Shown one piece after another: positions 14,903-32,405 of a stretch of 35,528 nt of DNA. The notes beneath the pieces were generated by a model. That model was not told where the DNA came from. It did no database searches and saw only the letters and a list, made by a program, of their open reading frames with translations. Where the stretch lies: the IMG/VR virus record IMGVR_UViG_3300037962_000735, positions 1 to 35,528 of that record; one strand, 5' to 3'. Source of the DNA: a virus (taxonomy: Duplodnaviria > Caudoviricetes). A program made the position numbers and the translations under genes. Each line of letters begins with the position of its first letter. Within the stretch, counting starts at the first letter, position 1.

Positions 14903-14939
14903 AACACTATTTATTTTAGACAAAAAAAGGATCTAGACC

Positions 14940-15494
14940 ATGGCATTAACTACTTACCATCACGGCGTCACTGCTACTGAGACCAGTAATATCACACCGA
15001 TTATCAAATCGGTCAGTATGAGCACCATTGCACTGGTGAGCACCAGTATTGATGCTGATGATGCTAAATACCCGCTTGATACCCCTGTATTGCTGACAGG
15101 CATCACGACAGATGATGTCACCAAAGCTGGCGCTAAAGATTCTTTGCTCAGCCAATGCTTGCAGACAATCAAATCTATCCAGAATACCAGTGTGGTCGTG
15201 TTGCGACTGTCTGAGCCAGTAGATATCGCTACCGTTGATACCTTGCTTAGCTCTCAATCACGCCTTGGTGTGACGCCCAAGATTTTGATTGCGCCTGAAA
15301 TTGATACCCCAGATATGACACGTAAGCTGATTGAGATCGCCAAGAAACGCCGTGCGTTTGTGTATGCGTCCCCACGAGCAGAAGACGGTACGTTGATTAC
15401 GGTCAAAGAAGATATTGCCGCTTATCGCGATACGTTCGCCGCGCGTGAGTTGATGCTGATTGAAGGCGAATGGGGCGTTCCAGCGGGAAAGTAA
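14940..15494 (+). CDS. FI: Tail sheath (P2 FI), N-terminal half
   Basis: YHHGV..., DAD..YPLDTPVLLT, LGVTPKILIAPEIDT, YRDTFAARELMLI, colinear with the first half of P2 FI; own RBS AAGGA. Confidence 0.88.
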   Translation: MALTTYHHGVTATETSNITPIIKSVSMSTIALVSTSIDADDAKYPLDTPVLLTGITTDDVTKAGAKDSLLSQCLQTIKSIQNTSVVVLRLSEPVDIATVDTLLSSQSRLGVTPKILIAPEIDTPDMTRKLIEIAKKRRAFVYASPRAEDGTLITVKEDIAAYRDTFAARELMLIEGEWGVPAGK

Positions 15495-15907
15495 CACGGC
15501 GACTATGGGCAAGTAAGCCATACCCCGTACTTGTGGAAAAAGACGATGCTTACCAGCCCACAGTTAAGCCGTTAAACATCACGATGAGACGGATATTAAA
15601 AGACACAACGATTGACAGTGATGCGTACCAGCCAAGCGTTAAGCCTCTCGATATTACATTACGCTCACTGCTTATGAATAAAAATATTGATGACGGCGAC
15701 GCTTATCAGCCGTCAGTCAAGCCGCTTGATATTACGCTGAAGTCGCTACTCATGAGTAAGAATATTGATGGTGATGCTTATAAACCGTCGGTTAAGCCAT
15801 TAGATCTAACGCTCAAGAGAGTTTTAGTTCAGCAGTACACGGGTGAAGATGATGCTTATCAGTCGACAGTCACGCCATTAGATATAACGTTAAATAAAGG
15901 AACATAG
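15470..15907 (+). CDS. Five-repeat domain, probably made as a -1 frameshift extension of sheath-N (fusion about 322 aa)
   Basis: SKPYP motif, then five DAY(Q/K)xxVxPLxxT(L/M) repeats; ORF lies in the -1 frame of 14940..15494 and overlaps its end. Confidence 0.75.
   Translation: MGRSSGKVTRRLWASKPYPVLVEKDDAYQPTVKPLNITMRRILKDTTIDSDAYQPSVKPLDITLRSLLMNKNIDDGDAYQPSVKPLDITLKSLLMSKNIDGDAYKPSVKPLDLTLKRVLVQQYTGEDDAYQSTVTPLDITLNKGT
15485..15528 (+). promoter_or_regulatory. Predicted -1 ribosomal frameshift signal
   Basis: In-frame G GGA AAG directly before TAA; downstream stems ACGG/CCGT and TATGG/CCATA; the -1 frame is open to 15907. Confidence 0.75.
15545..15892 (+). repeat. Degenerate coding tandem repeat, 5 units of 75-78 bp
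   Basis: DAY codons begin at 15545, 15620, 15698, 15773 and 15851. Confidence 0.85.
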
Positions 15908-15910
15908 ACA

Positions 15911-16864
15911 ATGCTAAATTTAGGCATAGCCGGTGAATTTCGTGCAGTAGTTACCCGCGCTGACGGTTCGGTAAAGATAGACACGGGTTTTGTAAGAAAC
16001 CTTGTATTAAACCAGGGCCTAGAATTTTTTGGGGGGAGTAAAGGTGGGTATTTTAATAGTAAATGCCTTATCGGTAGCGGTAATAGTAGCCCTGCAATTA
16101 CGCAAATATCATTAGATACTGCTGTAGCCATAGAGTCGATAACTCAATCGCCAGCAAATGCTAACGAATATGCCTTTAACGATTCAGGCGATGGGCTTTA
16201 TAAAATATGGGAGCAGCGTGCATATCGTTTCACTGGATTATCCGATGTGAATATTTCCGAAGTAGGTTTAGCAAGTGAGGGTACGTTAACTAATTACTAC
16301 TTAACCACAAGAGCATTAATAAAAGATGCCTTAGGAAATCCCACGACTATAAGCATAAAGGCTGGAGAAACCTTAGAAATAGTTTATCGAATCCATAAAG
16401 TTATAGACATTAACGACAAATCGTTTGTGGTTGATGTAAAAGATGGTGCCGGTGGTAGCGTACCGTATAACGTGGTAGTACGTCCGGCTAGAGTTGGGAC
16501 AAGCACCCATAATGTTTCGGCTGCTATATCTACCGTGGCGGGCGGTCGCTTTGCGTATAGCACCGCCGACTTAGGTGCTAAAGAACATTACCCCACTGGC
16601 GGAAGTGTTGAAGAAGGTGTTTTTTCTTTAGATACTTATACCTCGTTAACTAATAAAAGAAAAGGGTTGCTGTCTTTTGGTCTAACCGTTGCCAATGTTG
16701 CTATAAGAACAGTTTTCACTAGCAGCCCATCATACTTTTCCTTTTTCCCTTTTCAAATGCGCTTTGGGCGGGTGTCTGACGATGCACCATTAACCAAAAC
16801 AAATAAAGATACGTTATCTATCCCATTTGAAGTAAGTTGGGGACGCTATGAGGGTGAATTGTAA
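15911..16864 (+). CDS. Beta-rich putative virion/adsorption protein (cassette gene 2)
   Basis: 317 aa, RBS AAGGAA; NLVLNQGL, NISEVGL, TRALIKDA, VSWGRY; visibly more AT-rich than flanking tail genes. Confidence 0.6.
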   Translation: MLNLGIAGEFRAVVTRADGSVKIDTGFVRNLVLNQGLEFFGGSKGGYFNSKCLIGSGNSSPAITQISLDTAVAIESITQSPANANEYAFNDSGDGLYKIWEQRAYRFTGLSDVNISEVGLASEGTLTNYYLTTRALIKDALGNPTTISIKAGETLEIVYRIHKVIDINDKSFVVDVKDGAGGSVPYNVVVRPARVGTSTHNVSAAISTVAGGRFAYSTADLGAKEHYPTGGSVEEGVFSLDTYTSLTNKRKGLLSFGLTVANVAIRTVFTSSPSYFSFFPFQMRFGRVSDDAPLTKTNKDTLSIPFEVSWGRYEGEL

Positions 16865-17448
16865 TGTTGCCCGACAATACGCTTACTGAACTTGATAGTG
16901 CCTCGTTTTTACCACCACGCAATAAGTCGCAGACAGCGACAAAGTGTTGGGAGCTTGGTGGCATCGCCCTATCTGATACCAGTGAGCCTATGCAGTACTA
17001 CTGGTATGGCTATGTCAAAGGTAAAGGTATCTATCTACAGCGTAGCGGTGCTGAGCCAGTCGCAGTCTTAGCGTTTGCAGGTGATGTCACTGAGATGAGT
17101 TTTAGCTTTGATCAAAACATGCGCCCAACAATCGCATACGTCGAAAACGGCGTGGCCAAACTGTATTGGTATGACGCAAGCGTGGCTAAAAACGTGCTGA
17201 CACTATACCCGAATATCACCAATCCGCGCTTGTCACTTGATGATAAGCGCAAGTTTAACATCGGTAATAGCGACATTATTTTTGCTTATGTGACTGATCA
17301 CAATCGTCTGTGCTACCGCTTACAGCGCGAGCGTTATGGTGCTGAGCATGTACTTGTAACTGACACAACAAAGTCAGATGATGAACCTTTAAAGCTGAAC
17401 GTAATCGGTATGAGTACTGCAAATCGATTTTTATTCCTAACCAATTAA
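16864..17448 (+). CDS. Putative virion/adsorption protein (cassette gene 3)
   Basis: 194 aa, coupled by TAATG; motifs ELGGIALSD, FDQNM, YWYD, LDDKR, SDIIFAY, QRERY. Confidence 0.6.
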   Translation: MLPDNTLTELDSASFLPPRNKSQTATKCWELGGIALSDTSEPMQYYWYGYVKGKGIYLQRSGAEPVAVLAFAGDVTEMSFSFDQNMRPTIAYVENGVAKLYWYDASVAKNVLTLYPNITNPRLSLDDKRKFNIGNSDIIFAYVTDHNRLCYRLQRERYGAEHVLVTDTTKSDDEPLKLNVIGMSTANRFLFLTN

Positions 17449-17460
17449 TAAGGGAAAATT

Positions 17461-18060
17461 ATGACCCAAACAACCCCAATCATCGCCGTGGCCGCAGCTT
17501 TACGCGCCCACTTAGACAAGACGCACCAGTATAGCTTCGTCAAGTCGCTGTCCAACGTTGCCATTGATACTGTTAGTGGTATCAAATATCCACGTACCTG
17601 GGATCTAGAAGATCCTGATACTGAGGTCGGCTACCTAAACGCGAATGACGTGACCAGCCTCATTCAACACAACGGCTTTCGCTTTTGGGGCAGTCATACC
17701 TGCTCTGATCAGCCTGAGTATATGTTTGAGCCGGTCGTGCGTACCTCGCAGTTTTTGCTGGACACGATCATCAATGGCTGCTTTCAGTTCATTGATCAGC
17801 CACTATCACCAACGACTGTCCGTGACATCATTCGTGCCATCAATGCCAAGCTGCAGGAGATGGTTAACTTCGGTTATTTAATCGGTGCGAAATGCTGGTA
17901 CAACACCGAGCTAAACAGCGAAACGCTGCTCATGCAAGGCAAGCTGTATCTAGATTATGACTTTACCCCAGTGCCTAACCTAGAGAACCTTAACCTAAAT
18001 CAGACGATCACAGATACATACCTGGTCAACTTTGCCGACTTGGTAGCAGCAGCGGCCTAA
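17461..18060 (+). CDS. FI: Tail sheath (P2 FI), C-terminal half
   Basis: ALRAHLD...KSLSNV, WDLEDP, GFRFWGSHTCSD, GKLYLDYDFTPVPNLENL; own RBS AAGGGA and ATG. Confidence 0.9.
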   Translation: MTQTTPIIAVAAALRAHLDKTHQYSFVKSLSNVAIDTVSGIKYPRTWDLEDPDTEVGYLNANDVTSLIQHNGFRFWGSHTCSDQPEYMFEPVVRTSQFLLDTIINGCFQFIDQPLSPTTVRDIIRAINAKLQEMVNFGYLIGAKCWYNTELNSETLLMQGKLYLDYDFTPVPNLENLNLNQTITDTYLVNFADLVAAAA

Positions 18061-18098: not shown

Positions 18099-18626
18099 AT
18101 GTTACCTCGTAAATTAAAGAACTTCATGGCTTACAAAGGCCTTGGTAACCAAAAGCGCTACCAAGGTCAGATCCCAGAGATTGAGCTGCCCAAACTGACT
18201 CGCGTGCTCGAAGAGTATCGCGCTGGTGGTATGGATATGCCGGTCAAGGTTGACTTGGGCCAAGAAGCGATGGAAATGACCATCAAATGCGGTGGTCACG
18301 AAGCAGATTTGTACCGCGACTTTGCGCGTGCTGGTATTGACAAGGTCGTATTGTCTTATTCAGGTGCCTATCAACGCGATGATGATTGTAGTGTGGCAGC
18401 TGTCGATATCTATTGCCGTGGTCGCTTAGAGGAAATTGACCCTGGTAGCGCCAAGTTAGGCGACGACACAGAAGAGTCGTTCAAGTACTCATTGGCGTAT
18501 TACAGGCTGGTCGTAGACGGTGAAGACATCATTGAAATTGATGCCATGGCGATGAAGTGTATCGTCAATGGTGAAGACCGCCTAAAAGAGATCCGTGAAG
18601 CCATGGGAATGTTTACCACCGTCTAA
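18099..18626 (+). CDS. FII: Major tail tube protein (P2 FII)
   Basis: LPRKLKNF, LPKLTRVLEEYRAGGMD, GAYQRDD, IEID...VNGEDRL. Confidence 0.95.
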   Translation: MLPRKLKNFMAYKGLGNQKRYQGQIPEIELPKLTRVLEEYRAGGMDMPVKVDLGQEAMEMTIKCGGHEADLYRDFARAGIDKVVLSYSGAYQRDDDCSVAAVDIYCRGRLEEIDPGSAKLGDDTEESFKYSLAYYRLVVDGEDIIEIDAMAMKCIVNGEDRLKEIREAMGMFTTV

Positions 18627-18708: not shown

Positions 18709-19035
18709 ATGAACAACAATGATATGCCAACTATCGAACTAGACTACCCTATCATTCGCGGTACTGGCGATAAGGCCAAAGAGATTAAAGAGTTTACCCT
18801 GCGTCGTCCGATGGGTGGCGATTTGCGTGGCCAGTCACTCATTGACATTTCAATGGCCAAAGTCGATGCCCTAGCAGTAGTACTCCCTCGCATCAGCAAC
18901 CCAGTTATCCATGAGCATGAAGTCAAAAACATGGATGCCGCTGATTTGATGGACGTGGGGTTAACTATTGCCAGTTTTTTTACCAAGGCGAAACATCAGT
19001 TGCAAGCAGAAACCGCAGCTATCCCAACCGCGTAG
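18709..19035 (+). CDS. E: Tail assembly chaperone gpE
   Basis: LDYPIIRG, LRRPMGGDLRG, VLPRISNP, MDAADL...FF. Confidence 0.9.
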   Translation: MNNNDMPTIELDYPIIRGTGDKAKEIKEFTLRRPMGGDLRGQSLIDISMAKVDALAVVLPRISNPVIHEHEVKNMDAADLMDVGLTIASFFTKAKHQLQAETAAIPTA

Positions 19036-19160
19036 AAGACTGCATGGCAGACATCGCCTTGGTGTTCGGCTGGACACCAGAGGCGATGTATCACATGACG
19101 ATCGAAGAGCTTGCTGATTGGCGCGAACGAGCGCGTATCCGTAACAACCCTGATGAATGA
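18975..19160 (+). CDS. E': gpE' extension via -1 frameshift (not in the ORF track)
   Basis: T TTT TTT at 18975-18981; the -1 frame is open to TGA 19158-19160 and encodes MADIALVFGWTPEAMYHMTIEELADWRERA, the P2 GpE' motif. Confidence 0.88.
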   Translation, partial: FFYQGETSVASRNRSYPNRVEDCMADIALVFGWTPEAMYHMTIEELADWRERARIRNNPDE

Positions 19161-23585: not shown

Positions 23586-24038
23586 TCATACTTCAGGCTT
23601 TATATTATGAAATATCTGAAAAAACTTATATGCGGTTCGCAAAGAGTAAAAAACCAATACAATAGATAGAAAAATAACTGTGATAAAAACAAGAGATTGA
23701 TTATCTCGAACAAATAAACCAATAACAGAGATAATCAGAGTAATAAAGTAAAGCAGTGCAAGTAATTTGCTGTTTGTTAATAAGTTACTGTAATGGTTGG
23801 TTCTAATTAAATTTGAGACCAACCTTGTTCCTGCCAAACTTACCACTATAGCTATAAGAGTCAACAAAAAACCTAGCAGTATTCCATAAAGCGGAATCAA
23901 TACTTTAAATATATCATTAATAAAAATAGAATCTTGGGATAGTAAAAACTCTTTGAAAAAATAACATACAACACTACCAAATACTGCGCCATACAGTAGC
24001 CAGCTATAAGGTTTAATATGCTTCATTAATTTCATCAA
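23586..24038 (-). CDS. Four-TM membrane protein, accessory (RexB-like effector candidate)
   Basis: Four hydrophobic segments, very AT-rich, overlaps the upstream gene. Confidence 0.65.
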   Translation of the reverse strand: MMKLMKHIKPYSWLLYGAVFGSVVCYFFKEFLLSQDSIFINDIFKVLIPLYGILLGFLLTLIAIVVSLAGTRLVSNLIRTNHYSNLLTNSKLLALLYFITLIISVIGLFVRDNQSLVFITVIFLSIVLVFYSLRTAYKFFQIFHNIKPEV

Positions 24039-24867
24039 GTTTATCCAAGTAAGCAGAAATTATTTTCTCGTATATACTCTTATCAGGTAAAGTCTCTTTC
24101 AAATATTTATAGTCTTTAAAAGTATATTTAATCTTATCTTCAATTAGGTCGATCCAGTCTTTTTTACCGTCTATATTTAGTACTTGCACTCTAGCAGTAG
24201 TTGCTCCAAAACCCAAAAAGTTTTTTATAGCTTTTAAGGGATGATTGATAGAGCCTGGTGTCTGAGTTTTCAAACTAATATTTGTTTCTATTCTTACCGT
24301 TTCAGCTCCAGACTTGCTCGCAGCTTGAATGGTTTCATTACTCCAGTCATCAGCATACTCAGGTATTAAGTCATGTTTTACAGGAATATTAGCCTGTAGT
24401 TTAGTAACAGACTTATTACTCAATAAAGTTTCCAATGTGCCTTTCGTTAATAGAGGTGACAACTCTACTCTAATACCAAACGCTTGAGTCAGACAGTCCT
24501 CAAGTCTTTTGTAATGATTACCATGTTGGTTTCTGATATAAGCAAGTATTCGTTTATTAGGAATATAAATTAGATGATTGGTTTCAAACTTTCCTTCATC
24601 ATCAGCCATAGCAACATCCCAGCCATCAGTACACGCTTTACCAACCTTAATAGGCTCACCTGTCCTTACTTTGCGAAAAACACCACATACATATTGGTTA
24701 TCAATTTTTTGAAACTTATATAAGTCGCGTTCATAGCTATCTTTAAAACTATAGTTACCAGTCAACAATGTTTCAAAGCAACCACTGACAGTTACAGTAT
24801 TTCCCTGTTCATCTGGTTCAGGCTGTTCAAAAAAATTTACTTGGTAAAATTCGACTGTGGTAGACAT
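24013..24867 (-). CDS. Soluble accessory protein, DUF6731/DUF4747-like (RexA-like candidate)
   Basis: 284 aa; EG..E.NH..Y, RNQHG and IDLIEDK motifs recalled from this family; RBS AGGA. Confidence 0.55.
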   Translation of the reverse strand: MSTTVEFYQVNFFEQPEPDEQGNTVTVSGCFETLLTGNYSFKDSYERDLYKFQKIDNQYVCGVFRKVRTGEPIKVGKACTDGWDVAMADDEGKFETNHLIYIPNKRILAYIRNQHGNHYKRLEDCLTQAFGIRVELSPLLTKGTLETLLSNKSVTKLQANIPVKHDLIPEYADDWSNETIQAASKSGAETVRIETNISLKTQTPGSINHPLKAIKNFLGFGATTARVQVLNIDGKKDWIDLIEDKIKYTFKDYKYLKETLPDKSIYEKIISAYLDKLDEINEAY

Positions 24868-25104
24868 TTATTATCCTGTGTATGGGGTTGAGCATCAATA
24901 GGACAGGTGCTAAGACTCGTCACTCCCTGTCGCTTACAGCACTAAAAAAATGAGCCTGTATCAACTGACTCATAATAGATTGATATTAGCTAAAGCGTAT
25001 CACCGTGCAACACTTTCAGCAATAACTATTTGACTTTTGTCAATCTAAATATTTCCTTTTTTAAATATGGCAGTGGATGTTTAAGGCGTCTTATCTAATA
25101 CAAC

Positions 25105-25138
25105 AAAAAATAGCCACTACCTATCAGGCAGTGGCTAT
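25105..25138 (-). terminator. Intrinsic terminator for 25168..25992
   Basis: Minus strand ATAGCCACTGCC-TGATA-GGTAGTGGCTAT followed by a T-run. Confidence 0.85.
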
Positions 25139-25167
25139 CAGACTAGGACTGAATGCGAGGTTAAAGT

Positions 25168-25992
25168 TTAAGCAGGTTCAATTGTGATCCATATACCTAT
25201 AGTCTTACTTGCAAGAGCAGTGTATTTAACGTCATCTACTACTTTACTGGCTTCCCCTTCGCCGTTTTCTTCATACCCATTAAGAGCTTCTGCAAGCACC
25301 TTCATTACTGTTCCAGCGCTCTCTTCTTTAGGCACATCAGGACTGATAGCACGAGCAGAGAGCCCTGCCATCATTGCCATATTCAAACCCTCTCTATCAC
25401 CATTTTGTGTTTTACCCATAATAAAGGTGATACCTTTTAGCTCTCCATTCTTATCAACAGTGCCATTCATTGCTATAGCTTCGCTCAACATTGTTGAAAA
25501 GGTATCGTTTACAGCGCCTTTGATTGTCTCAAAATCCCCATAAGGCACTTCACCAAATCCAACCTCTTTAGCCTCAGCGCTAAATTGACGACTAAACTCG
25601 AGCGGAGTAATACCAAAAGTTTTGTCAGTAGATTTTTCTACATAAACAGGCTCGAAAGGTTCAATTTCTTTAGCTTCAAGCGTATCGTCGGCTTGTGACT
25701 TTACCTCAATCGCACCATTATCTTTTACTTCATAATCATCAGGTTCAATGCCTACTTCGGCAACGACTTCATCGACATCTATAGCTGTATTTTGGTCGGG
25801 AGTAATAGCAATGCCAATACCAATAGAGACAACCCATACCGCTAGTATGGCAGCAGAGAACTTGCCTCGCGACCACTTGCCATTAGGGTTTTTCTTAGTA
25901 CGAATATTAAATTTAGCAGGTTTTATCAGAGAATAAATCAACAACGCTGGTAATAATAAAAAGGCAACCAAACTGATTAAGAACATGCCCAT
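25168..25992 (-). CDS. Membrane-anchored acidic periplasmic protein, accessory
   Basis: Two N-terminal TM helices separated by a basic loop, acidic linker, globular C-terminal domain. Confidence 0.65.
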   Translation of the reverse strand: MGMFLISLVAFLLLPALLIYSLIKPAKFNIRTKKNPNGKWSRGKFSAAILAVWVVSIGIGIAITPDQNTAIDVDEVVAEVGIEPDDYEVKDNGAIEVKSQADDTLEAKEIEPFEPVYVEKSTDKTFGITPLEFSRQFSAEAKEVGFGEVPYGDFETIKGAVNDTFSTMLSEAIAMNGTVDKNGELKGITFIMGKTQNGDREGLNMAMMAGLSARAISPDVPKEESAGTVMKVLAEALNGYEENGEGEASKVVDDVKYTALASKTIGIWITIEPA

Positions 25993-29436: not shown

Positions 29437-29628
29437 ATGCGCTGTCCAGCTTGTCATTCCAACTGTTTAATCCTGCGTACCCGCGTTATTACTGATTACT
29501 TACGCGATATAGAGCACCGCTGCAAAAACGATGAGTGCGGACACATATTCGTCACTCAGCAAGAGTATGTACGCTCGATAGTCAAGCCAGACGTGCAGAA
29601 AGACAAACCAATCAGCGCAAATGCCTAA
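29437..29628 (+). CDS. ogr: Ogr/Delta-like zinc-finger late-gene activator
   Basis: MRCPACH...R...CKNDECGHIFV...RSIV. Confidence 0.88.
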   Translation: MRCPACHSNCLILRTRVITDYLRDIEHRCKNDECGHIFVTQQEYVRSIVKPDVQKDKPISANA

Positions 29629-29657
29629 CCAAACTACCAAACCAGACGAGCAATATT

Positions 29658-32405
29658 ATGCAAACCATGCAAGATGATACCCGTAGCGAGCTAATCACTC
29701 GCCTCGTGCAAGATTATGGTCTCAAATTCTCAAGCGACCATCAGTTTTTGCGTTATGGTCGCTGCCCATCATGCGGCAAAAAGGAGTTGTTCACCGGTGC
29801 TGATGCGCCGTGGACGATCCAGTGTGGCCGCTCTAATAAATGCAATTACCAAGCATCTACTCGCGATATTTACCCAGACATATTCGCCAATTGGACGAAG
29901 AAAAACCCACCAACACCCAGCAACCCAAATGCCACGGCTGACGCTTATCTTCAGTCGGGACGTGGCTTTGATATTGTCAAATGGCAAGGCAGCTATACCC
30001 AAGAAGTATTCAAAGACTTTTATTCCGACTTCACCTGCCCCAGCGTGCGCTTCAACATCACAAGCGATGGCCAAGCCATCGGCTATTGGGAACGGCTGAT
30101 AGAACCCGCCGCAAATATAAAAAAGGCCCGTGTACAAACAGGCTTTAAATTTAAAGGTCATGCTTGGTTACCGCCAAAGCTACACCTACAGCAAGGCGTC
30201 TGGTCATATGTAAAAGAGCTATGGATAGTAGAGGGCATCTTTGACGCCATGGCACTGACTGAGAACGGCTTACATGCTATCAGCAACATCACCGCGGGTA
30301 ACTTCCCAGCGCACACCTTAGCACAAATAAAAGCGCGAATGGCAGAGCTTGGTAAGCCACTGCCCAAGCTTATCATCGCACTCGATAGCGACCACGCTGG
30401 ACGCAAAGCCACTGACAAACTGGTGGCCACCGCACGCCAAAACGGCTGGGATGTCACCGCCGCGCAGTCAAGTGAGTACAGCGACGGAGCAGACTGGAAC
30501 GACCTACACAAAGCGGGAAAACTCACCAAGACAGACCTTGAACGCTACCGCTTTTATGGTGAGCTGCTTATTGCTGAGACAGCAAAGGACAAGGCGCTAC
30601 TGACGTACAACCAGTATGGCACCACTAGCTTTTATATGTTTTTCAACAGTTGCACCTACTGGGTAAAAGTAGACAGCGAAAGCTTTGATAAAGCCAAGCA
30701 AATGGACGCAGACAGCGAACCGACAGAAGATTTATTCAATACTGAAGAAGAGTTAAAAGAAGCCGTACAGCTTTGGCATGACGACTTGATGCAGTCTTGC
30801 ATGACTGTCACCCAAATCATGAACTGTCAGCCGCAAGCACTCTATTATCAGCAAAACTTAGTGACAGATGAGAGCTGGTACTTCTTTCGTATTCGCACAT
30901 CACAAGGCGACACTAAAAATACCTTTACCGGTAGCCAACTGTCGGCCGCTGGTGAGTTTAAAAAGCGCCTATTATCAGTCGCGCCTGGCGTCATTTATCA
31001 AGGCAATTCAAAGCAGCTCGACATTATGTTAGGACGCATGATTAACGGCATCAAAACCGTTGAGACCATCGACTTTATTGGTTATAGCAAAGACCATCAG
31101 ACTTACATTTTTAACGATATCGCAATCCGTCATGGTGTGACTTACGCGCTCAATAAAGACGACTATTTTGACCTGCCCAATAATAAAAGCCTAAAGACAT
31201 TAGCGGCCAGTCCAAATATTCGCATAGGCGACAAACCCAAAGAACCTGCAAATTGGCTAGCGGACATCATAACTGGTTGGGGCGTCCAAGGAGTCATTAG
31301 TCTAGTGGGTTTTATGGGTAGCCTGTTTGCTCAGCAGATCCGCGAGCGTCAAAAATCCTATCCATTTATGGAGATTGTGGGCGAGCCTGGGACTGGTAAA
31401 TCAACCCTACTTAGCTTTTTTTGGCGTTTGATAGGTCGTGATGGCTACGAGGGTATCGATCCCAACAAAACCACTAAGGCCGGTCGCCTGCGCTCACTGT
31501 CACAGACTTCAAACATGCCCAGCGTCTTTATCGAGTCAGACCGCGATGGGGCTGGTACAGGACGTAATAGCCAGTTCAATTGGGACGAACTTAAAAACCT
31601 ATACGACGGCGGCACGATTGGTACACGCGGCGTCAAGTCTGCAGGCAATGAAGTCTACGAGCCACCGTTTCGCGGCACTATCGTCATCAGTCAAAATTTG
31701 CCCGTGGTGGCGTCCAAGGCAGTGCTAAGCCGTATTTGCCACCTATTCTTTGGATTGGACAACCAGACCCGAGATTCTGAAGCAGCAGCCAGACGCATTG
31801 AGGCACTACAGACCGAAGATGTCAGTCATTTTTTAGTCGATATCCTCAAGATGGAAGACAAGATACTGCAGGTATTTTTTGATACCAAAATAGCGCATGA
31901 GAATTGGTTAAAAGACAGCGGTGTCAAAGCTTTTCGTGTTGCTCATTGCCACGCGCAGATACTCGCCATGTTTGATGCGATGAAACTGGTATTGCCAGAC
32001 TTGCAACGTTTGGACGGGGCCGTCAAGCAGGAAGTATTTAACATGGCAACCGAACGCGATCAGACGCTTGATACCGAGCATCCGCTCAATATCCAGTTCT
32101 TTGATGTGCTCGAACGATTGAATGCAGCGCCCAACACAATCGAAGGTGCTGGTCATCATATCCGCCGCTTGCATATCAACCACAGCAAAAACCCAGATCT
32201 ATTAGCGATCAGTATGCCAGAGATCTATCAGCTTGCGAATGAGTACCGCTATGACCTACCGCCACAATCCGATATGCATCACGCGCTGCGCCAGTCTAGG
32301 CAGTTCAAGTTTGTGGCAGCAAACAAGACGGTAGCGTCTCAAATCACGGGCCGTAGCATTCGTTGCTGGGTGTTTGAAATGCCTAAAAACCTAAGTCTCA
32401 CTTAA
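29658..32405 (+). CDS. Replication protein: zinc finger + TOPRIM primase + helicase (phiCTX/P4-alpha type)
   Basis: CPSCGKKE...CGRSNKC, WIVEGIFDA, ALDSD, DWNDLH, Walker A GEPGTGKST. Start likely 29658 or 29667 rather than 29535, which overlaps ogr. Confidence 0.9.
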   Translation: MQTMQDDTRSELITRLVQDYGLKFSSDHQFLRYGRCPSCGKKELFTGADAPWTIQCGRSNKCNYQASTRDIYPDIFANWTKKNPPTPSNPNATADAYLQSGRGFDIVKWQGSYTQEVFKDFYSDFTCPSVRFNITSDGQAIGYWERLIEPAANIKKARVQTGFKFKGHAWLPPKLHLQQGVWSYVKELWIVEGIFDAMALTENGLHAISNITAGNFPAHTLAQIKARMAELGKPLPKLIIALDSDHAGRKATDKLVATARQNGWDVTAAQSSEYSDGADWNDLHKAGKLTKTDLERYRFYGELLIAETAKDKALLTYNQYGTTSFYMFFNSCTYWVKVDSESFDKAKQMDADSEPTEDLFNTEEELKEAVQLWHDDLMQSCMTVTQIMNCQPQALYYQQNLVTDESWYFFRIRTSQGDTKNTFTGSQLSAAGEFKKRLLSVAPGVIYQGNSKQLDIMLGRMINGIKTVETIDFIGYSKDHQTYIFNDIAIRHGVTYALNKDDYFDLPNNKSLKTLAASPNIRIGDKPKEPANWLADIITGWGVQGVISLVGFMGSLFAQQIRERQKSYPFMEIVGEPGTGKSTLLSFFWRLIGRDGYEGIDPNKTTKAGRLRSLSQTSNMPSVFIESDRDGAGTGRNSQFNWDELKNLYDGGTIGTRGVKSAGNEVYEPPFRGTIVISQNLPVVASKAVLSRICHLFFGLDNQTRDSEAAARRIEALQTEDVSHFLVDILKMEDKILQVFFDTKIAHENWLKDSGVKAFRVAHCHAQILAMFDAMKLVLPDLQRLDGAVKQEVFNMATERDQTLDTEHPLNIQFFDVLERLNAAPNTIEGAGHHIRRLHINHSKNPDLLAISMPEIYQLANEYRYDLPPQSDMHHALRQSRQFKFVAANKTVASQITGRSIRCWVFEMPKNLSLT

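Follow-up and report, generated by a model that had tools for sequence, protein, structure and literature searches.

The tail sheath of the provirus held in IMG/VR as IMGVR_UViG_3300037962_000735 (35,528 nucleotides (nt), all of which were analysed and are called the window here) is split between two genes. These are separated by a cassette of three open reading frames (ORFs), and the last codons of the first gene form a slippery heptamer, G GGA AAG, that leads into the first ORF of the cassette. Across the loci compared, the split is old and under selection, the slip site is conserved, the cassettes belong to a pool exchanged between fixed borders, and there is traffic of cassettes with an unrelated Mu-type sheath. 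The reading proposed here, which is probably right as a whole, is that of a two-gene sheath in which a slip at the heptamer hangs an exchangeable, predicted host-binding arm on some of the N-terminal halves (N-halves). The coordinates of all features are collected in Table 1.

Both halves are intact ORFs lying 1966 nt apart, each with an AAGG-type ribosome-binding site (RBS) ahead of it, as a first-pass annotation made from the sequence alone had described them, and the record, a 100%-complete provirus, contains no further sheath gene. On the 496 positions of the tail sheath family phrog_23, the N-half matches up to position 271 and the C-terminal half (C-half) matches positions 283-476; on the R2 pyocin sheath, the C-half matches residues 197-385 and the N-half reaches ~179 in a weak match (E 0.8). 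The annotation's claim that almost nothing is lost at the break agrees with the spacing from RELM to ALRAHLD, which is 28 residues in the split halves (read from the sequence) versus 30 in 115 of 117 whole sheaths. The RELMLI motif that it had placed at the end of the N-half is present, but the N-half runs 10 residues further. Predicted masses are 19.8 and 22.5 kDa for the halves and 35.3 kDa for the transframe product of 322 amino acids (aa). The family homology and the place before the FII tube gene are those of a P2-type sheath, from which the window departs in lacking a single polypeptide of ~390 aa. Pfam and NCBIfam scans gave no family match to the T6SS (type VI secretion system) proteins TssB/TssC, and the context is that of a P2-type prophage. 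The N- and C-halves probably co-assemble into one sheath subunit and very probably fold together non-covalently.

Many relatives share the division. Among 401 Moraxellaceae genomes, 48 contain sheath matches (52 rows), of which 20 are split at the same point; the 21 best rows (>300 bits) consist of these 20 and one whole gene with a 144-aa insertion (L020), and the other 31 are whole. Close viral relatives are split in six of six cases and further loci fetched later in eight of eight, and stand-alone C-halves make up 126 clusters of 187 candidates, with Psychrobacter and Acinetobacter among the source names. In a midpoint-rooted tree of 83 C-half rows (duplicates, L109, L173, and whole sheaths beyond 45 left out), 38 split rows and the whole L020 form one 100/100 clade as against 44 whole rows. 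Ratios of nonsynonymous to synonymous substitution (dN/dS) relative to the window are 0.026-0.19 for the N-half (12 computable of 15 pairs) and 0.024-0.20 for the C-half (14 computable of 15 split pairs); in close relatives the tube gene gives 0.02-0.06 and the sheath halves are similar. Purifying selection extends to the arm in the -1 frame (0.14-0.28, seven computable of eight pairs). The whole sheaths L020, P0254, and P0273 carry insertions of 130-145 residues at the split site, and in some loci the two halves are coupled without any insert. By these comparisons, the split is an old, selected Moraxellaceae trait, in line with the earlier view of an evolved architecture.

A decayed prophage, its sheath broken by an insertion or restored to full length by splicing or ribosome bypass, is a very improbable alternative. 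Two loci (L109 and L097) do look damaged, but the family-wide clade, the low dN/dS, the C-half's own RBS, and the coupled halves that have no insert all run counter to it. A transposase, a reverse transcriptase (RT) or maturase, conserved terminal repeats, and an intron RNA were looked for in the window's insert and not found; Rfam returned no match at E<=1, and library scans returned no transposase. The annotation's statement that mobile-element signs are missing thus held for transposase and intron features, and for terminal repeats it needs amending: an imperfect 15-nt inverted repeat (12/15) flanks the insert and is not conserved in relatives. As a mobile-element end this repeat was rejected as chance, 8-10 of 15 positions pairing in five of five relatives with the same cassette. 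In the contigs of four runs, two of them RNA, there is no joint by which the insert would be skipped, although contigs show presence and not absence. Finally, MF417929.1 (L190; Bracchivirus U2F1, classified by the International Committee on Taxonomy of Viruses) is a circular split-sheath genome from a DNase-treated filtrate, with GGGAAAG and a 462-codon -1 frame into a gene annotated as hypothetical. The paper on phage 2F_1 describes this filtrate, and its sheath is not mentioned in the part of the text available (PMC6095929). At L190:2538-3926, a likely unannotated -1 frameshift joins the sheath N-half to 2F1_24, and the C-half is annotated as hypothetical.

The heptamer is the sole copy of GGGAAAG on the plus strand of the window, and G_GGA_AAG is rated highly shift-prone in Escherichia coli (PMC5009743). 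In a census, the 38 non-duplicate P2-type loci with the N-half in reach were scored for a heptamer in the final 15 codons followed by at least 90 open codons in the -1 frame. Twenty loci have both, 11 have an in-frame extension, six lack a slip site, and in one the slip site opens a frame of 25 codons. Of 1513 ORFs that served as a control, one has such a heptamer and none has a long -1 frame. Eight later loci comprise two with a slip, five in frame, and one with a short linker. The heptamers used across loci are GGGAAAG, AAAAAAG, and GGGGGAG. The codon ahead of the encoded Gly-Lys varies (Pro, Ala, Leu, Val) but ends in G, and the Gly is written GGA, which accounts for 8% of Gly codons here; L174 has A AAA AAG instead. 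A shift-prone, in-frame heptamer near the stop is conserved beyond the needs of the protein, as expected of programmed -1 frameshifting, and the long, selected -1 ORF lacks an ATG of its own in eight of 10 loci with this arm, the window itself having one. Many loci have stems 3-6 nt behind the heptamer, with z down to -5.9 in several; programmed frameshift sites typically have a stimulatory stem 5-9 nt downstream, and in 24 loci that were folded z fell below -2.5 in 10, the stem of the window being weak. In Acinetobacter, the stems lie 4-6 nt behind the heptamer and change in sequence with pairing kept. A -1 slip of ribosomes at G GGA AAG would add the arm to part of the N-halves, and it is very likely that a 35-kDa N-half-arm product is made beside the 20-kDa N-half.

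What follows the N-half differs widely between loci. The arms resemble surface modules, with Hoc-like Ig, Gly_rich_2, LRR_5, and DUF285 domains among them, and, depending on the phage, related domains are placed either in the -1 frame or in frame (L184 versus P0246, E 6e-16; likewise the pair P0262/P0263 with its ISCxGA motif). N-half representatives mostly consist of an N-half with unrelated extensions and no C-half, and a hidden Markov model (HMM) of the arm found no in-frame arm among 150 of them. GGGAAAG is also retained in seven fusions that are in frame. A shift there would meet a stop within 3-8 codons, and these fusions have either an inverted ratio or a heptamer preserved as a junction. 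The insert of L018 (Psychrobacter sp. 72-O-c) holds a complete diversity-generating retroelement (DGR), comprising a 439-codon -1 arm, Avd, a template repeat, and an RT (PF00078, PF22296, and NF033474, the last at 72 bits with a cut-off of 80). Its template and variable repeats differ by 16 mismatches over 119 nt, 13 of them on template adenines, and the variable repeat lies at the 3' end of the -1 arm. This DGR (L018:2976-6001) sits between sheath halves with its target reachable via a -1 slip, and the same contig carries two equal-scoring C-half copies. The same DGR target occurs in L004, L011, and L015 with no RT in the insert. Enzymes are also seen inside inserts, at L003:7480-8241, L094:5420-5983, and L184:4175-4750 (peptidase S11/beta-lactamase-like, GT2-like) and in L223, where the start of the protein looks like that of a nucleotide-sugar epimerase.

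The window's own cassette encodes the arm and two partner proteins, and its ORFs match PHROGs 8874, 4176, and 4950, annotated as tail fiber. The arm contains five repeats of 25/26 residues (15540-15889) and was aligned with 10 others (11 arms); the ESM Atlas gave no usable match for it. The 317-aa protein has conserved ends and a segment, residues 201-280, that is hypervariable across 120 homologues (conservation 0.28-0.47 versus 0.61-0.89 elsewhere). The one clear fold match of its model is 9h4p_BD, which is 953 residues long, belongs to the HFTV1 tail (Z 15.9, root-mean-square deviation 3.7, 238 residues aligned), and is probably the baseplate hub. Projecting domains of the HFTV1 hub have been proposed to bind host glycans (bioRxiv 2024.12.09.627619). 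The 317-aa protein is a candidate receptor-binding subunit; the pilus-binding fibre fold of JBD30 gp47/gp48 is not among the matches listed for it. The 194-aa protein is 85-99% identical in near relatives, and fold searches with it returned generic propellers only (best Z 10.3). Prediction of a complex of all three gave a median of 0.76, falling to 0.60 with the 317-aa protein replaced and to 0.00 with the arm replaced, and was not used as evidence. Binding of both partner proteins by the beta-strand repeats of the arm is somewhat favoured, and service of the module in reversible adsorption to a variable surface structure is slightly more so; type IV pili as the target are a lead only.

The frameshift could also be real and the decorated N-half serve something other than adsorption, such as keeping the tail stable, binding tails to one another or to mucus, or a role confined to the sheath's first or last ring. 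Stability has been offered along with adhesion for extra sheath domains (Evseev et al., PMC9230969), the FN3 domain added by frameshift in SPP1 is dispensable, and the tail fiber function of the trio is an annotation. This explanation is nonetheless unlikely, since the hypervariable segment of the 317-aa protein, the DGR on one arm, the swapping of cassettes, and the short native fibres fit host-driven selection better. A native fibre of <=361 aa is found in 24 of 31 split loci versus five of 59 whole-sheath loci, samples that are not phylogenetically independent, and may be the context in which an extra adhesin matters.

Searching with the cassette proteins led to Mu-type prophages (L007, L170, L171, L183-L189). 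In all 10 of these loci the sheath is interrupted near residue 80; its parts match phrog_165 positions 13-84 and 215-491, and positions ~85-214 (~130) are missing at the split. GGGAAAG is kept in all 10, opening a long -1 ORF in eight and standing in frame in two. P2-type and Mu-type cassettes are 84-94% identical in DNA, and the shared homology begins at the heptamer and ends at the RBS or first codons of the C part; in L186 and L188, the Mu-type C part starts with residues that open a P2-type C-half. These data go beyond the first-pass annotation: the cassette belongs to a large set of modules that replace one another, and the same junction is in use in another sheath family unrelated to the first. 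The anchor of the arm differs (P2-type half, Mu-type part, or a small protein in L173), which marks the arm as a portable unit. The wider proposal, that Moraxellaceae myoviruses have made the contractile sheath a plug-and-play scaffold for display, has slightly better than even chances. In it, both unrelated sheath families would have been divided where the sheath faces outward, with a shared junction acting as slip site and recombination border and with common adhesin cassettes (one of them DGR-diversified) partly replacing the tail fibre in recognising the host.

Other arrangements were seen beside these. L185 seems to hold two copies of the N part. At L173:5462-8811, the arm is in frame on a protein of ~55 residues, followed by the partner genes and then an undivided sheath of 403 aa. 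L179:4960-7495, in an unrelated phage, has two tandem copies resembling the 317-aa protein before a homologue of the 194-aa protein, and L175-L178 have the trio among siphovirus or podovirus tail genes.

Several points weigh against the reading proposed here. All dN/dS pairs share the window as a member, GGGGGAG was added to the heptamer list after the Acinetobacter loci had been seen, and the window's hairpin is no better than shuffled sequence. Seven of the 38 loci have no long fused arm and the C-half of L109 is broken, which suggests that arms are dispensable in some phages and that some loci may be decaying. The retention of GGGAAAG in the seven in-frame fusions means that its conservation may in part be that of a recombination junction, and the passenger enzymes in some inserts mean that position in the insert alone is no proof of a virion protein. 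No cultured phage with this layout is among the best 25 of 516 GenBank phage matches, and the homologues of the two partner proteins in phage StenM_174 are called undefined structural proteins, not receptor-binding ones (PMC10820202). An ATG at 15470, five codons ahead of the heptamer and preceded by GAAGG, could start the arm independently in the window.

That ATG is the basis of a further alternative, in which the halves assemble, the genes of the insert are translated separately in a moron-like slot, and the arm is made from the ATG without attachment to the sheath. An ATG with a possible RBS is present in the window and L006, insert genes of L017, L019, and L099 have their own starts and no slip site, and passenger enzymes lie in some inserts. 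This alternative is improbable: the ATG precedes the conserved arm start in only these two of 10 loci with this arm and is absent in eight (the systematic check of independent starts covered Met starts), the -1 frames in GGGAAAG and AAAAAAG loci become open just 7-28 nt ahead of the stop that ends the N-half, the census gave 20 of 38 against none of 1513, and related domains exist in in-frame versions. The new C-terminus is inferred to face outward, because the three whole sheaths noted above carry their large insertions at this hairpin and because additional domains of sheaths are located away from the tube (PMC9230969). The arm would sit on a minority of subunits; in 11 of 38 loci the extension is in frame. 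The frameshift would set the number of arms per tail. Recombination between the heptamer and the RBS or first codons of the C-half would bring in new cassettes. A likely history is that a domain entered the hairpin, the gene was divided behind it, and frameshift control came last, an order that the tree does not fix.

The rest of the window is that of a P2-type phage. Its late operon contains portal, terminase, GPO, P2 capsid, GPL, muramidase, gpR, gpS, gpV, gpW, gpJ, and gpI genes and continues with a short gpH, the sheath, the FII tube, E, and the tape measure, the order fibre-sheath-tube-E-T being that of P2 FI and the R2 pyocin. For the C-half, the nearest named genomes are Psychrobacter species (97-99% identity). 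In the gpE chaperone gene (18709-19160), a run of T at ~18975-18982 accompanies an overlapping -1 frame that resembles the P2 E/E' extension. Three minus-strand genes (23586-25992) oppose the late operon after the tail genes; their PHROG families (10865, 23546) have no assigned function, and the genes are possible morons. A 956-aa replication protein with a Toprim domain (29535-32405) stands where P2 has a gpA-type initiator. Promoter and terminator scans came out at or below chance (6 versus 8.4 and 1 versus 3.3), and no attachment-site core longer than 10 nt is shared between the window ends.

Table 1. Features of the split sheath locus in the window (pLDDT, predicted local distance difference test).
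Feature	Position	Strand	Basis and remarks
Short gpH-like tail fibre, 329 aa	13913..14902	+	PF12571 (collar) and PF21939 (Gp10_C); without long fibre shaft
Sheath N-half, 184 aa	14940..15494	+	RBS AAGGA 14927-14931; phrog_23 E 5e-21
Slippery heptamer G GGA AAG	15485-15491	+	TAA stop 15492-15494 follows directly; left border of exchanged cassettes
Repeat arm, -1 frame, 140 codons from heptamer	15485..15907	+	phrog_8874 'tail fiber' E 1e-4; ORF callers start at ATG 15470
Possible 3' stimulatory hairpin	15496..15536	+	-11.4 kcal/mol, z -0.8
317-aa all-beta protein	15911..16864	+	phrog_4176 E 9e-45; model pLDDT 94
194-aa partial beta-propeller protein, coupled to 317-aa gene	16864..17448	+	phrog_4950 E 1e-40; model pLDDT 94
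Sheath C-half, 199 aa	17461..18060	+	RBS AAGGG 17450-17454; PF17482, phrog_23, 3j9q 197-385
Tail tube FII, intact, usual place behind sheath	18099..18626	+	PF04985 E 9e-53

The individual parts of this system have counterparts elsewhere. Capsid or tube proteins are extended by frameshift in SPP1 (gp17.1/gp17.1*, FN3, 3:1), T3/T7 (gp10B), Lactobacillus phage A2, and Listeria phages A118/A500; a minority of the copies of the major structural protein thereby carry an accessory domain at the C-terminus, and Ig-like domains occur in or out of frame (PMC5009743, PMC8718954). Those extensions use natural C-termini, whereas here a contractile sheath gene is cut to make one, and the arm, unlike extensions of the SPP1/T7 type, is one of many swapped cassettes, some with partner genes or a DGR. 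P2 FI and R2 pyocin PA0622 are homologous over both halves and belong to the type 1, one-domain sheaths, described as single polypeptides of 321-410 aa (Evseev et al. 2022, PMC9230969), in contrast to the two polypeptides and variable insert found here. Sheaths of types 2 and 3 (T4 gp18, phage 812, Mu gpL) have inserted Ig-like domains away from the tube, with a proposed role in adhesion or stability (PMC9230969); these are in frame in every subunit, whereas here the domain is on a free end and likely dosed by frameshift. A contractile sheath subunit of two proteins is known from T6SS (TssB/TssC, or VipA/VipB; PMC9230969). That pair is not from a phage and is a fixed two-gene arrangement without cassette or frameshift. 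VipA tolerates C-terminal tags, and the P2-type cut near pyocin residue 190 presumably lies at a different site from the TssB/TssC division.

The window's cassette matches a 'tail fibre' trio of Xanthomonas/Xylella podophages, and the partner proteins have homologues in 125 and 103 GenBank phage records. Xylella phage Prado (gp42-44) and Stenotrophomonas phages Paxi and StenM_174 (gp44-46) have the same order, with second and third proteins homologous to those of the window (HMM E 1e-29 to 1e-55), and homologues of PHROGs 4176 and 4950 are adjacent and in order in Prado and Paxi. In these short-tailed phages, the arm-like tail ends a larger Ig/carbohydrate-binding protein, whereas here it is read from a sheath half; in Prado gp42 and Paxi gp45 the tail was seen by eye and the arm HMM gave no significant match, while the window's arm matches phrog_8874 at E 1e-4. 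Use of pili by Prado-like phages was not confirmed in the literature searched; the pilus-binding papers PMC11445458 and bioRxiv 2026.03.17.712343 concern other proteins in the text available. No report of a split phage sheath or of a frameshift on a sheath was found in the literature searched, a scope that excluded supplements and most subscription papers, and the terms 'split', 'two genes', and 'frameshift' have no occurrence in the available text of PMC9230969. Domains added by frameshift, extra domains inserted in frame into sheaths, and a T6SS sheath made of two chains have all been described, and a phage sheath that combines them was not found in that literature.

If the proposed reading is true, a sheath built from two chains, hitherto described for T6SS, can also occur in a phage, and host-recognition modules may sit along the sheath rather than at the baseplate. 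The two natural cut points would mark positions at which sheaths likely accept foreign domains, of use in the study of sheath assembly and in the tagging of tailocins. Many prophages of Psychrobacter, Moraxella, and Acinetobacter that have been read as a broken sheath with hypothetical genes, including Bracchivirus U2F1, are probably intact.

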